This document shows, one piece after another, positions 17,104 to 24,887 of a stretch of 64,000 bases of DNA; position 1 is the first letter of the stretch, and each line of letters starts with the position of its first letter. The position numbers were made by a program, and so were the translations under genes. The DNA is taken from assembly GCA_038046005.1 (NCBI GenBank), contig JBBSXB010000001.1, forward strand, positions 52,769 to 116,768, read 5' to 3'. The notes beneath the pieces were generated by a model. That model searched no databases. It worked only from the letters and a program-made list of their open reading frames with translations, and was not told the origin of the DNA. The stretch is from Nanobdellota archaeon (GTDB taxonomy: Archaea > Nanobdellota > Nanobdellia > Pacearchaeales > GW2011-AR1).

Positions 17104-17487
17104 ATGAAAAATAAAGTAGAAAATAAAATCAAACGAATTGTATCAAGAAGAGACATAGCAACTTTAACAGAAGGAGGTATTGTTTCAGTAAAATTAAAAC
17201 ACTTTTATCCAAGTGTTAGCATTTATACAACAACAGAAGAAGGATTATTTATGGTTGCGGGGAATTACATGACAACTACAAAATTAATAGCCCCTTTAAG
17301 AAATAGTTTGTTCAATCCAGAAGGGAGAATAATGGAACTCGTCGGTTTTACTAGAAATATGGAGTTTGAAAATGGGGCTTTGATTTTATATGATAAGGCT
17401 ATAGGAAAAAAATGTTTGCTCCCAGAGAGTGGAACTCCTTACAATTATTATAAAGACAGATTATCAGTAGAGGGATTAATAAATTAA
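17104..17487 (+). CDS. Hypothetical protein (127 aa) inserted between L2 and S19
   Basis: Starts 8 nt after the L2 stop. S19 starts 2 nt after its stop. No recognisable family. Not a known ribosomal protein at this conserved junction. Confidence 0.5.
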   Translation: MKNKVENKIKRIVSRRDIATLTEGGIVSVKLKHFYPSVSIYTTTEEGLFMVAGNYMTTTKLIAPLRNSLFNPEGRIMELVGFTRNMEFENGALILYDKAIGKKCLLPESGTPYNYYKDRLSVEGLIN

Positions 17488-17883: not shown

Positions 17884-18459
17884 ATGACAGAAAATAAAAA
17901 ACAGACTAAAGAAGAAAAAGTAGATAACAAAGAATTAGAAAGCACCCCTAGTGAAAAACCCATCTCTAATGAAAGTGAAGTTAAGGAAGAGAAAAAAGAG
18001 ATTAAAGAAAAACCAAAAAAGGAAATAAAAAAGAAAACAAGTGCCGTTGTTAATGGAATTAATCTTCACATGTCAACAAAACAAGCCGCTGCAATTTGCA
18101 GGTTCATTAAATGGAAAGAAATAAAAAAAGCTGTTCAAGAATTAAAGGAAGTTTCTCAATTGAGGAGGGCGATACCTATGAAAGGCGAAATACCACATAG
18201 GAAAAATATTGGTCCTGGAAGATATCCTCAAAAAGCGTCTAAGGCGTTTGTTGAATTGTTAAACACTCTTTCGGCAAACGCTGAAACTAATGGATTAGAA
18301 AATCCAATAATAGCTAAAGCTGTTGCTAACATTGCATCAAGGCCTTATGGGAAATTTGGGGCTGTTAGGAAAAAAAGAAGTCATGTTGAAATAACTGCTA
18401 TTGATAAAAAAGAAAAAACACATTCAGACAAAAAAGCAATGGAGGGTAAAAAAAACTGA
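17884..18459 (+). CDS. rpl22: Ribosomal protein L22 (uL22) with ~55-aa Lys/Glu-rich N-terminal extension
   Basis: 191 aa. uL22 core from about residue 56. Low-complexity K/E-rich N-terminus. Confidence 0.85.
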   Translation: MTENKKQTKEEKVDNKELESTPSEKPISNESEVKEEKKEIKEKPKKEIKKKTSAVVNGINLHMSTKQAAAICRFIKWKEIKKAVQELKEVSQLRRAIPMKGEIPHRKNIGPGRYPQKASKAFVELLNTLSANAETNGLENPIIAKAVANIASRPYGKFGAVRKKRSHVEITAIDKKEKTHSDKKAMEGKKN

Positions 18460-19388: not shown

Positions 19389-19685
19389 ATGGAAATATGT
19401 CCAAAGTGTGGATTACCCAAAGAAGCCTGTGTATGTGAACAGATAGCAAAAATTTCACAAAAGATAACTGTAACGACAGACAAGAAAACATACGGAAAGA
19501 TAGTAACTGTCGTCACAGGGTTCGGCGATGGAGTGGATGTGAAAAAAACCGCAAAAGCTCTAAAAAACGAACTGGCTTGTGGAGGCACCTACAAAGATCG
19601 TATGATCGAGCTTCAAGGAGATCATACCAAAAGAATAAAAGGTGTCTTGGTCAAGTTGGGTTTTGATGAAGAATCCATAAATTAG
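19389..19685 (+). CDS. sui1: Translation initiation factor 1 (aSUI1/eIF1) with N-terminal zinc ribbon
   Basis: 98 aa. CPKCG...CVC followed by the SUI1 domain (KITVTTDKKTYGKIVTVVTGF...LACGGT). Confidence 0.85.
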   Translation: MEICPKCGLPKEACVCEQIAKISQKITVTTDKKTYGKIVTVVTGFGDGVDVKKTAKALKNELACGGTYKDRMIELQGDHTKRIKGVLVKLGFDEESIN

Positions 19686-19698
19686 AAATACGCGAAAA

Positions 19699-20091
19699 AT
19701 GACAAAGAAGGAAACCAAAGTAAAAGAAGAAGGAATGCTAAAAATAGCTGGTGCTTTATGCAGTGATAGGAACTGCCATGTCCATGGCGGATTAAAGACA
19801 AGAGGAAGAATCTTTGATGGATTGGTCATAAAAAAATTCCCGAAAAGAGTCGCAATAGAATTTGACAGGATGACATATGTAAAAAAATATGAAAGGTATA
19901 AAAAATCAAACACAAAGATTCATGCCAGGCTTCCTGACTGCATGAGTGACAAAATCAATGTTGGAGACTACATTAGGGTGCAGGAATGCAGACCTTTAAG
20001 TAAGATAATACACTTCGCGGTTTTAAACAAAATCAAAAATAAAGAAGAAGCAACAAAGATTTTGAACAAACAGGAGACTAACTTAAAATGA
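19699..20091 (+). CDS. rps17: Ribosomal protein S17 (uS17)
   Basis: 130 aa. CSDRNCHVHGGLKTRGRIF...VGDYIRVQECRPLSK. Confidence 0.85.
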   Translation: MTKKETKVKEEGMLKIAGALCSDRNCHVHGGLKTRGRIFDGLVIKKFPKRVAIEFDRMTYVKKYERYKKSNTKIHARLPDCMSDKINVGDYIRVQECRPLSKIIHFAVLNKIKNKEEATKILNKQETNLK

Positions 20092-20432
20092 AAAGAGCAA
20101 TTATTTTAACAGGAAGAGAAGGAAACTCTGAGTTTTACAGTTTATTATTAGAACTAAATTCTAATGCTGTTTTTTACACTCATCGGTTTAAAGAAGGAAA
20201 TCATCAAGCTTTTTTAGACGAAGTTGCTTCAGATTTTGCAGAAAAAATTGCTGAATATAATAAATCTGGAATTTTAGAAGTAGGAAGATTAAATGGTTAT
20301 AATATAATAGATGGAAAACCTATTGAGGTAGATAAAATAGACACAACTTCGTTTGAAAGAAGATTAGAAAAATTGTTAAAAAATTTAAAGGGAGTAACTG
20401 CAGTAGAAAATATTGCAAGTTTAAACAACTAA
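20088..20432 (+). CDS. Hypothetical protein (114 aa) inserted between S17 and L14
   Basis: ATGA overlap with the S17 stop. L14 starts 2 nt after. AGGAG 14 nt upstream. No recognisable family. Confidence 0.5.
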   Translation: MKRAIILTGREGNSEFYSLLLELNSNAVFYTHRFKEGNHQAFLDEVASDFAEKIAEYNKSGILEVGRLNGYNIIDGKPIEVDKIDTTSFERRLEKLLKNLKGVTAVENIASLNN

Positions 20433-23638: not shown

Positions 23639-24012
23639 TGACAAAATTTTTAAGAAGAAATTCTGATAAGTTTTCAAAGCTAGGATTAAGGAAAAAGAAA
23701 AAGCAAGTGTGGAGAAGCCCTAAGGGAAGACATAACAAAATGAGGAAAAAAAGGAAAGGGTATCCTGCAGTTGTTAGTATTGGCTACGCAACAAATAGAA
23801 AAACAAGAGGAAAGATTGATAACAAAAATCAAATTGAGGTTAATAATATCAAAGAATTGGCCGGATTAAAAAATAATGATATTGTCTTGATTGGAAAAAT
23901 TGGAAAAAGGAAAAAGATAGAAATAGTAAAAAAGCTTAAAGAAATGAAAATTTCTGTTTCCAACCTCAATATAAACAAATTCCTAAAGAAGAATATGGGG
24001 GAGAAAAAATGA
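23638..24012 (+). CDS. rpl32e: Ribosomal protein L32e
   Basis: 124 aa. WRSPKGRHNKMRKKRKG motif. Confidence 0.85.
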   Translation: MTKFLRRNSDKFSKLGLRKKKKQVWRSPKGRHNKMRKKRKGYPAVVSIGYATNRKTRGKIDNKNQIEVNNIKELAGLKNNDIVLIGKIGKRKKIEIVKKLKEMKISVSNLNINKFLKKNMGEKK

Positions 24013-24413
24013 ACTTAAAAAAGAAAAAAGCATTGGCTGCAAAAACTCTTGGAGTTGGAAAGGGAAGAATCGTTTTCTTAGTGCCAAGATTAGATGAAAT
24101 AAAGGAAGCAATAACAAAACAAGATATGAGAGATCTTCATAAAGAGGGAGCAATACTAATAAAAACAATAAAAGGAAGAAAAACAAAAAAGAAAAGCGGA
24201 AGAAGAGGTTATGGGAAAGTGAAAATAATTGTTAACACAAGGAAAAAAGATTATATTGTACTAACTAGAAAATTCAGAGGAATGGTTAAAGATCTCTTGA
24301 ATAAAGGAATAATTTCAAAAGAAAACTCTTTAGAATTGAGGAAAAAAATAAAGAATAAGCAGTTTAAAAGTAAATCGCATTTTAATGAACAATTAAAAGT
24401 AAAGGAGTATTAA
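24009..24413 (+). CDS. rpl19e: Ribosomal protein L19e
   Basis: 134 aa. LKKKKALAAKTLGVGKGRI N-terminus. Confidence 0.85.
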   Translation: MNLKKKKALAAKTLGVGKGRIVFLVPRLDEIKEAITKQDMRDLHKEGAILIKTIKGRKTKKKSGRRGYGKVKIIVNTRKKDYIVLTRKFRGMVKDLLNKGIISKENSLELRKKIKNKQFKSKSHFNEQLKVKEY

Positions 24414-24887
24414 ATGGAAAAAGAAAAAGCACTAAAAGATTTTGAAGAAGGGTTCGGCAGATTAAAGCAAGAACTTAAGTTTAAAACTAATTTGGATGAA
24501 ATTGATGAAATTTTCTTTATTAGAGATGTTATACTTCAAGATGGATTTGTAAGCAAAAATTTATTCAGGCAAATGGCCTACAGGATTGCAGAATTTTATC
24601 TAAGATGGAATGATTATTTGCATGGTTTAATAATGCCAAACCCTCAAAATATTTTAAGTTTAAGCGAAAGTAAGATTTTTAACCAAGAAGAGAAAAAGAT
24701 TATAACAAACATGATAAAAAAGATAATGGAATTGAACAGCAAGAATATTCTTATAACTTTGACTAGGGATAAAGCAGAAGAAGGGAAGTTTATTGATTAC
24801 AGTGTTAATATGTGGAAAAGTGAATTACAACCAGAGATAATAAAATTAATTAAAAAAATAAATAAAGAATGGGGAGAAAACAAATGA
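24414..24887 (+). CDS. Hypothetical protein (157 aa) inserted between L19e and L18
   Basis: Starts 1 nt after the L19e stop (AGGAG 7 nt upstream). Its stop overlaps the L18 ATG (ATGA). No recognisable family. Confidence 0.5.
   Translation: MEKEKALKDFEEGFGRLKQELKFKTNLDEIDEIFFIRDVILQDGFVSKNLFRQMAYRIAEFYLRWNDYLHGLIMPNPQNILSLSESKIFNQEEKKIITNMIKKIMELNSKNILITLTRDKAEEGKFIDYSVNMWKSELQPEIIKLIKKINKEWGENK

Follow-up and report, generated by a model that had tools for sequence, protein, structure and literature searches.

The stretch of DNA analysed here (the window, 64,000 nucleotides long) has on its + strand a complete S10-spc cluster of archaeal ribosomal-protein genes, running from the gene for L3 (14353) to that for SecY (28609) and joined by an EMC3/TMCO1-like gene. 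Between the genes for the ribosomal proteins (r-proteins) L19e and L18 lies an ORF of 157 amino acids, hereafter ORF X (its product is protein X, or simply X), at a site with about 31% GC in this AT-rich window. The features of the site are the following:

24009-24413, + strand: gene for ribosomal protein L19e (PF01280, E = 3.6e-13), directly upstream of ORF X, with its TAA stop codon at 24411-24413
24403-24407, + strand: AGGAG, a Shine-Dalgarno-like motif within the end of the L19e gene, its last G at -7, 6 nt ahead of the ATG of ORF X
24414-24887, + strand: ORF X, 157 aa, from ATG to TGA, between L19e and L18
24884-24887, + strand: ATGA, in which the TGA of ORF X (24885-24887) overlaps the likely ATG of L18 (24884-24886)
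24884-25369, + strand: gene for ribosomal protein L18 (uL18; L18/L5e; PF17144, E = 6e-12), directly downstream of ORF X

The L19e gene also matches PF25476 in Pfam (E = 2.3e-05), with a score of 24.9 bits that just misses the cut-off of 25 bits. The initial annotation of this DNA had placed an ORF at 24414-24887 between L19e and L18, starting right after the L19e stop codon with AGGAG at -7 and ending in an overlap with the ATG of L18, and each of these points is confirmed by the list of ORFs, the Pfam matches of both neighbours and the sequence itself. There is no spacer between the TAA of L19e and the ATG of ORF X (a junction of 0 nt), and the junction between ORF X and L18 is -4 nt. Two in-frame ATGs could start L18, one at 24884 within the ATGA and the other at 24869; the former is favoured because L18 begins at the ATGA in two related loci (L001 and L005), which gives an L18 of 161 aa. 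The same 4-nt ATGA overlap is present in L001, L005, L019, L020 and other loci. Across the whole operon most junctions fall between -4 and +2 nt, and a GGAG-type motif precedes about half of the genes, so that ORF X, which is present in one copy in the window, resembles any other member of the operon in its spacing and in its motif. From this gene anatomy we infer that ORF X is co-transcribed with L19e and L18, and it is most likely also translationally coupled to its neighbours, as the ATGA overlap would fit.

In the canonical archaeal gene order (...L32e-L19e-L18-S5...) nothing stands between L19e and L18, and this includes the DPANN genome AR10 (PMC10833476); our literature searches for a gene between L19e and L18 found no description of one. 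The S10-spc superoperon has several non-ribosomal residents, such as aIF1/SUI1, the RNase P protein Rpp29, SecY, the EMC3/TMCO1-like protein and others, and ORF X belongs with them as an accessory gene: it does not encode a known r-protein, it is co-oriented and tightly packed, and its position between r-protein genes is conserved across many genomes. However, those residents have known functions and occur throughout the Archaea, whereas X occurs in a single DPANN radiation only, where it uses the canonically unoccupied L19e|L18 junction and, in other sublineages, other junctions.

ORF X had at first been grouped with three further ORFs intercalated in the same cluster, and the four together had been taken to encode about 520 aa of unknown protein. 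The other three are the following:

17104-17487: 127-aa ORF (X127), between L2 and S19, with no family match
19389-19685: 98-aa ORF, SUI1/aIF1 (PF01253, E = 7.7e-20), a normal resident of the cluster
20088-20432: 114-aa ORF (X114), between S17 and L14, with no family match

This description holds for X and for the 127-aa and 114-aa ORFs, all of which are without a family, but not for the 98-aa ORF, which is aIF1. The grouping itself is misleading: conservation belongs to the 157-aa X, and the 127-aa and 114-aa ORFs are orphans. Homologues of these two were found in none of the 112 related loci, and in the closest relative (L006) L2 and S19 are directly adjacent, as are S17 and L14. In other words, the two ORFs are genome-specific inserts, not to be pooled with the conserved X.

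A word-indexed search of 5.8 billion proteins found 25 homologues of protein X at 45-100% identity, with lengths of 140-168 aa, mostly 154-168 aa. When a profile was searched with HMMER against 1.84 billion cluster representatives (one per 50%-identity cluster), 632 matches were obtained at E <= 1e-3, of which 248 reach E <= 1e-10. Single-domain proteins of 150-175 aa predominate among the matches, and the shorter entries look incomplete; the members of the family are stand-alone proteins of about 155 aa. Every named homologue, cluster labels included, is called a "hypothetical protein", and a further profile search seeded with distant members (alignment A4) brought in almost no additional members. 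Relative to L006, whose protein X is 87% identical, dN/dS is 0.039 for X, 0.049 for L19e, 0.040 for L18 and 0.044 for S5, ratios that are approximate with synonymous sites near saturation. Compared with the window proteins, those of 36 syntenic loci have median identities of 52.7% for X, 56.9% for L19e, 54.6% for L18 and 53.2% for L32e. Among 25 non-identical syntenic loci, the pairwise distances of X correlate with those of the r-proteins at r = 0.56-0.74, the highest value being that with L18, and the r-proteins correlate with one another at 0.64-0.76. Because both the identities and the distance correlations resemble those of the r-proteins, X has been inherited vertically with the operon and evolves at r-protein rates.

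These data show ORF X to be a genuine, vertically inherited housekeeping gene. A lack of conservation, which the initial annotation had named as an outcome that would count against its proposal, was not found, X being conserved about as strongly as the neighbouring r-proteins. That ORF X is no gene, but either a frame open by chance or a mis-read continuation of L19e or of L18, has a negligible probability: nothing speaks for it beyond the missing annotation, and it would have to account for 157 codons kept open in 31%-GC DNA, for hundreds of homologues that share its length, for a dN/dS of 0.04 and for a confidently predicted AlphaFold2 fold. The conservation data refute it.

The protein had been described as having no recognisable domain, and in agreement with this protein X of the window has no significant match in Pfam, NCBIfam, PHROGs or the PDB sequences. 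Pfam searches with 25 close and 26 distant members of the family returned scattered chance-level matches and nothing consistent, and PDB profile searches with alignments A1 and A2 found no significant match, the best being a designed repeat protein (E = 0.014). Two candidates were rejected. A match to telomerase p65, a K/E-rich helical one (E = 0.0032 in the single-protein PDB search), was gone when profiles were used; a phmmer match to the GatB chain 3al0_B (E = 0.2), which pointed to GatB/YqeY, was likewise gone in the profile searches, and GatB_Yqey (PF02637) is absent from the Pfam matches. The AlphaFold2 model, built on an alignment of 25 sequences, has a mean pLDDT of 92.7 and a pTM of 0.86 and contains seven helices (residues 2-21, 27-34, 36-43, 50-73, 80-86, 91-117 and 120-155), so that X is predicted to be an all-alpha helical bundle. 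Foldseek searches of this model against PDB and BFVD gave nothing below E = 0.5, and no RNA-binding or factor-like fold was found among the matches. Remote homology and structure prediction, which were among the checks proposed for X, give a confident helical model with no family or specific fold match. A known, unrelated family that X clearly matches, the other outcome that would have counted against the proposal, did not turn up in Pfam, NCBIfam, PHROGs, the PDB sequences or the PDB and BFVD folds.

The close relatives of X share 14 invariant positions and a hallmark motif, W65-x2-Y-L-H70-x-L-I-M-P75-N-P-Q-N...E85-S-K. Across 123 diverse members, only W65, P75, E85 and W153 are conserved at 90% or more; H70 is kept in 79% (otherwise N or Q), R52 in 67% and R57 in 72%, and no invariant set of catalytic residues is seen. 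With its aromatic and proline positions and a single acidic residue, this pattern is more what one would expect of a structural or binding module than of an enzyme. The family is acidic to neutral, with a median pI of 5.97 in 145 full-length members (7.8 for X of the window), and the neighbouring r-proteins L32e, L19e, L18, L6 and S5 have pI values of 9.4-11.1.

The taxon-labelled matches of X come from Nanoarchaeota, Woesearchaeota, Pacearchaeota, Parvarchaeum and two Aenigmatarchaeota, that is, from DPANN archaea, barring a few contigs labelled "uncultured Methanosarcinales" or "Omnitrophota", which probably carry wrong labels. From genomes and metagenomes we gathered 116 X loci and classified the neighbours for the first 112; collapsing the loci at >=95% sequence identity left 81 non-redundant loci, which are distributed as follows:

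L19e-X-L18: 34 of 81
L3-X-L4: 2 of 81 (L021 and L034; L3 and L4 Pfam-confirmed)
L15-X-SecY: 1 of 81 (L045)
LeuRS (Pfam-confirmed) immediately upstream of X on the same strand: 8 of 81
other contexts, mostly housekeeping: 36 of 81

The related genomes, to which the initial annotation had looked for a check, thus keep the L19e-X-L18 position in 34 non-redundant loci, where most junctions measure from -19 to +9 nt. The family also reaches beyond this position, and its distant members are found elsewhere, often near other translation genes. In five of the loci of the LeuRS region (L099, L103, L105, L106 and L110), the next gene downstream encodes a protein of 83-84 aa that resembles EF-Tu domain 2; all four sequences scanned match PF03144 (EF-Tu domain 2; best E = 1.2e-6, below the curated cut-off), and the top PDB profile matches are aEF1A and eIF5B. 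AlaRS lies two to three genes from X in six loci. In Woesearchaeota, a 24%-identical member (P0173) stands in the order EF1A-S10-X and overlaps S10 by 8 nt, and of two other distant members one is near MetRS and a tRNA-binding protein and one near PheRS alpha and beta. SRP54 is downstream of X in L032, and in one lineage X is found in the V-ATPase operon between subunits I and c (L044 and L100). Other neighbours are genes for a metallophosphoesterase, a methyltransferase, Lrp/AsnC regulators, EndoIII, BioY, glutamate dehydrogenase and G6PD; apart from LeuRS and the EF-Tu-domain-2-like protein, no single conserved neighbour was found outside the operon.

In a rough neighbour-joining tree of X, most L19e-X-L18 loci fall into one large clade, with the L3-X-L4 pair near its base, and a second small L19e-X-L18 group is interleaved with LeuRS-linked members, another LeuRS-linked clade lying deeper. 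By this layout the L19e|L18 position is a derived one, with a single origin or a few at most. The link of X to translation genes, unlike this derived position, recurs at several independent places.

Among the four top DPANN-specific "dark-matter" families listed by Makarova et al. in 2019 is cls.004340 (NEQ484), an alpha-helical, DPANN-restricted family in housekeeping neighbourhoods that was called "enigmatic" (PMC6393860). The X family may be this one, when compared by the published description: it too is DPANN-restricted and uncharacterised, predicted to be all-alpha, and found in housekeeping contexts, namely r-protein operons, aminoacyl-tRNA synthetase genes, the V-ATPase operon and SRP54. 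On the other hand, Nanoarchaeum is not among the X matches, which come from Pace-, Woese- and Nanoarchaeota, Parvarchaeum and two Aenigmatarchaeota, and the positions in r-protein operons and the link to LeuRS that are seen for X do not occur in the published note. It should be mentioned, as a correction on the point of novelty, that the literature may already list the family, as a DPANN-specific cluster without a name (PMC6393860).

What, then, might X do? From its genomic context, we propose that X assists the translation apparatus as a non-enzymatic accessory protein, a proposal that we regard as evenly poised between right and wrong. At least five distinct arrangements beside r-proteins, LeuRS or EF1A-S10, and 45 of the 81 non-redundant loci, speak for such a role, and a non-enzymatic adaptor is favoured because the protein is an acidic helical bundle with no conserved catalytic residues. 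X would then be a helical adaptor that binds protein or RNA; among the options, it could act as a ribosome-associated or ribosome-assembly factor, or as an escort for basic r-proteins or translation factors, whereas a structural, rRNA-binding r-protein is unlikely. Eukaryotes have dedicated chaperones for single r-proteins, Acl4 for uL4 and Syo1 for uL18/uL5. As a possible analogy of mechanism only, small, non-enzymatic, helical and acidic proteins could shield the very basic r-proteins, and X is a neighbour of uL18 at the L19e|L18 junction and of uL3 and uL4 at L3|L4; however, it has no sequence or specific fold similarity to Acl4 or Syo1, and its adjacent r-protein varies. The partner gene of X differs between arrangements, and for this reason no specific client can be named. 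Two observations run counter to a role in translation. The 36 remaining loci are in contexts without a translation link, and the insertion of X in the V-ATPase operon means that selection may be for constitutive co-expression instead of such a role. In addition, the L19e-X-L18 loci come mainly from one clade and therefore represent few independent events.

Some members of the family carry a charged C-terminal extension of 10-18 aa that ends in a hydrophobic residue, an aromatic residue and Gly (MFG, FFG, YFG, MYG, TFG or YSG). Such tails are found in about 12% of the family (33 pattern matches, of which about 32 are convincing, in 273 sequences). Protein X of the window ends in ...NKEWGENK and has no tail of this kind; P0025 is the one tail-bearing sequence in the alignment of close homologues (A1), the rest of the L19e|L18 clade being without it. 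In archaea, the stalk protein aP1 has ...LSALFG at its C-terminus. Its Leu106, Phe107 and the carboxylate of Gly108 bind aEF1A, this binding requiring both the Phe and the carboxylate, and Leu103, Leu106 and Phe107 also bind aEF2 (PMC4267659). The tails of some X members resemble the terminal Leu106-Phe107-Gly108 of aP1, whereas its upstream amphipathic helix (Leu100, Leu103) is not evident in them; this analogy, at the level of the motif only, suggests that the tail-bearing branches may recruit translation factors. We also consider, tentatively, a more specific possibility, which we would not call probable: X would be a DPANN-specific component of the translation system, a helical adaptor of ribosomes or factors conserved like an r-protein, that has repeatedly been drawn into r-protein operons, at L3|L4, L19e|L18, L15|SecY and after S10, and beside LeuRS and that bears a stalk-like tail in some branches. 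The ...Phe-Gly tail of those branches could in that case recruit aEF1A, aEF2 or aIF5B, and the reduced translation machinery of DPANN archaea would have gained a lineage-specific core part.

A different explanation for the same gene neighbourhoods would make X an abundant protein of general use in the cell, chaperone-like or structural and helical, without a specific role in translation, which DPANN genomes with few promoters have repeatedly captured in constitutive operons for suitable expression. This is possible, but we find it rather doubtful. It would explain why X sits between subunits I and c of the V-ATPase operon and why 36 of the 81 loci have mixed housekeeping and metabolic contexts, and in related spc operons the junctions of r-protein genes hold many further small ORFs that are non-homologous, from which it follows that these operons accept insertions easily. 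Makarova et al. (2019) likewise place a DPANN alpha-helical family "typically in house-keeping context", and not in translation specifically (PMC6393860). Against this explanation, translation genes are over-represented beside X (in at least five arrangements), X evolves at the rate of the r-proteins, and its distances show their best correlation with L18. Even as a hitchhiker only, X would still illustrate the insertion of genes into r-protein operons by reduced genomes. The opposite extreme, a lineage-specific structural r-protein integral to the large subunit of DPANN ribosomes, would agree with the place of X between L19e and L18, the overlap of the coupling type and the r-protein-like conservation and dN/dS, and archaea-specific r-proteins such as L45a and L47a were indeed left as hypothetical for years (PMC6393860). 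We nevertheless think it improbable, as the family lacks a strongly basic composition (its median pI of 5.97 stands against 9.4-11.1 for the neighbours), the predicted bundle of helices is compact and bears no basic extensions, most distant members are encoded outside r-protein operons, and no r-protein family is matched (by 25 close and 26 distant members in Pfam, and by the window protein in NCBIfam). The sole r-protein name in the Pfam output is a chance-level match of one distant member to Ribosomal_L12_N (E = 0.023), and a divergent known r-protein is rejected on the pI of X and the absent family match.

Far less probable still, in our judgement, is a selfish or defence insert, that is, a HEPN-like toxin or RNase, or a mobile ORF, in an essential operon. 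The thought arises from weak Foldseek matches to 1wwp_A (E = 0.5), which we take to be a HEPN-fold protein, to the HepT toxin chain 6m6w_H (rank 21) and to a Csx1 chain (rank 44), from the R64-x5-H70 of X in the window, and from the orphan inserts X127 and X114 in the same operon. However, only the two closest relatives of the window protein share its R64, other sequences having G, S or D there, and an R-x4-6-H motif is not conserved across the family (alignment A2); no structural match to HEPN folds is significant, and a partner antitoxin gene is absent. Against a selfish element also stand the single copy in the window, the vertical inheritance of X under r-protein-like purifying selection and the lack of any PHROG or BFVD match. 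A HEPN identity for X is rejected on motif and fold, and the reading as an insert of this kind is largely refuted.

Returning to an accessory of translation, X belongs to a family with no family model and no characterised relative, which in this lineage lies within the spc operon and probably has a translation-linked role. The initial proposal of a novel ORF without a known domain, expressed together with r-proteins, is supported. Its evolution as slow as that of the r-proteins, its overlapping start and stop codons and the recurrence of its relatives beside translation genes make ORF X a strong candidate for a part of the DPANN machinery for translation or ribosome biogenesis that is lineage-specific and has been missing so far. 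DPANN archaea, which account for much of archaeal diversity, have very small genomes and an unusually high share of unannotated genes, and a model of the X family, which is absent from Pfam and NCBIfam, would improve the annotation of hundreds of metagenome-assembled genomes. The position of X (L19e|L18, L3|L4, after S10, or LeuRS-linked) may also serve as a synteny marker for Pace- and Woesearchaeota.

The ribosomal protein genes of the spc operon in related Pacearchaeota and Woesearchaeota are accompanied by many small ORFs of 55-145 aa, which lie at the junctions between ribosomal protein genes (S17|L14, L24|S4e, S14|S8, L30|L15, and L15|SecY; loci L002, L007, L009, L010, L019, L020, and L046, all of which carry members of family X, the conserved, predicted all-helical, DPANN-restricted family whose copy in the window is 157 aa long). 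The majority of these ORFs fall into separate BLAST clusters, and one of the clusters, c34, with ORFs of about 115-125 aa, turns up repeatedly, in L010, L015, and L046. The spc operons of this set seem to be unusually open to small inserts. In the window, two further inserted ORFs and two extended ribosomal proteins were recorded:

17104-17487, + strand, 127-aa ORF between L2 and S19 (junction lengths 7 and 1 nt)
17884-18459, L22, 191 aa, of which about 59 aa form a K/E-rich N-terminal extension
20088-20432, + strand, 114-aa ORF between S17 and L14
25371-26219, S5, 282 aa, of which about 135 aa form a K/E-rich N-terminal extension ahead of the S5 domain

The 127-aa ORF matched nothing in Pfam or the PDB, its sole PHROG match was weak (E=0.004), and no homologue turned up among the 112 related loci whose neighbours were classified. 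In L006, the closest relative, L2 directly adjoins S19. The 127-aa ORF is an insert specific to one genome. The start of the 114-aa ORF overlaps the S17 stop codon as ATGA, and a single nucleotide separates the ORF from L14; family and PDB searches gave no match, and it likewise has a homologue in 0 of the 112 loci. Small ORFs also occupy the S17|L14 junction in several related operons (L007, L010, and L012); these ORFs are different and non-homologous. The Pfam match of the window S5 begins at residue 138, and the S5 proteins of related loci (251-299 aa) carry the N-terminal extension as well. At 19389-20091, S17 lies directly 3' of SUI1/aIF1. The canonical archaeal gene order has Rpp29 (RNP1), an RNase P protein, ahead of S17 (PMC10833476); it is missing from this position in the window cluster and in the related loci examined.

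Family X also occurs in other gene contexts. The gene order LeuRS, X, and a protein of 83 or 84 aa is conserved in five loci, with LeuRS seen upstream of X in L103, L105, L106, and L099, and the L110 sequence ending short on that side. The genes for the small protein are as follows:

L103, 6558-6809
L105, 5760-6011
L106, 6217-6471
L099, 1203-1454
L110, 728-979

The small protein is a stand-alone EF-Tu-domain-2-like beta-barrel. All four members that were scanned matched PF03144, with a best E of 1.2e-6 that falls below the curated cut-off, and domain 2 of aEF1A was the best PDB profile match. In L044 (5799-6404) and L100, a 194-aa member of the family lies between V-ATPase subunits I and c, in an A/V-ATPase operon with the order H?-I-X-c-E-C-F-A-B, so placing the family inside a conserved housekeeping operon of another kind.

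About 12% of the family members carry a C-terminal extension that is 10-18 aa long and K/E/Q-rich (L064, L072, and L094; proteins P0025, P0042, P0054, P0055, P0075, P0181-P0183, and others), which ends in a hydrophobic-aromatic-Gly motif (MFG, FFG, YFG, MYG, TFG, YSG) or in Y/F-x-G-[VIL]-x. The C-terminus of the aP1 stalk protein (...LFG) binds aEF1A, and aEF2 is bound via the same residues (PMC4267659); the tails resemble it at the level of the motif.

Some contigs that encode family members are filed in public records under non-DPANN taxa, namely L025-L029 and L040 as “uncultured Methanosarcinales” and P0183 as “Candidatus Omnitrophota bacterium”; these labels are probably errors of binning or labelling.
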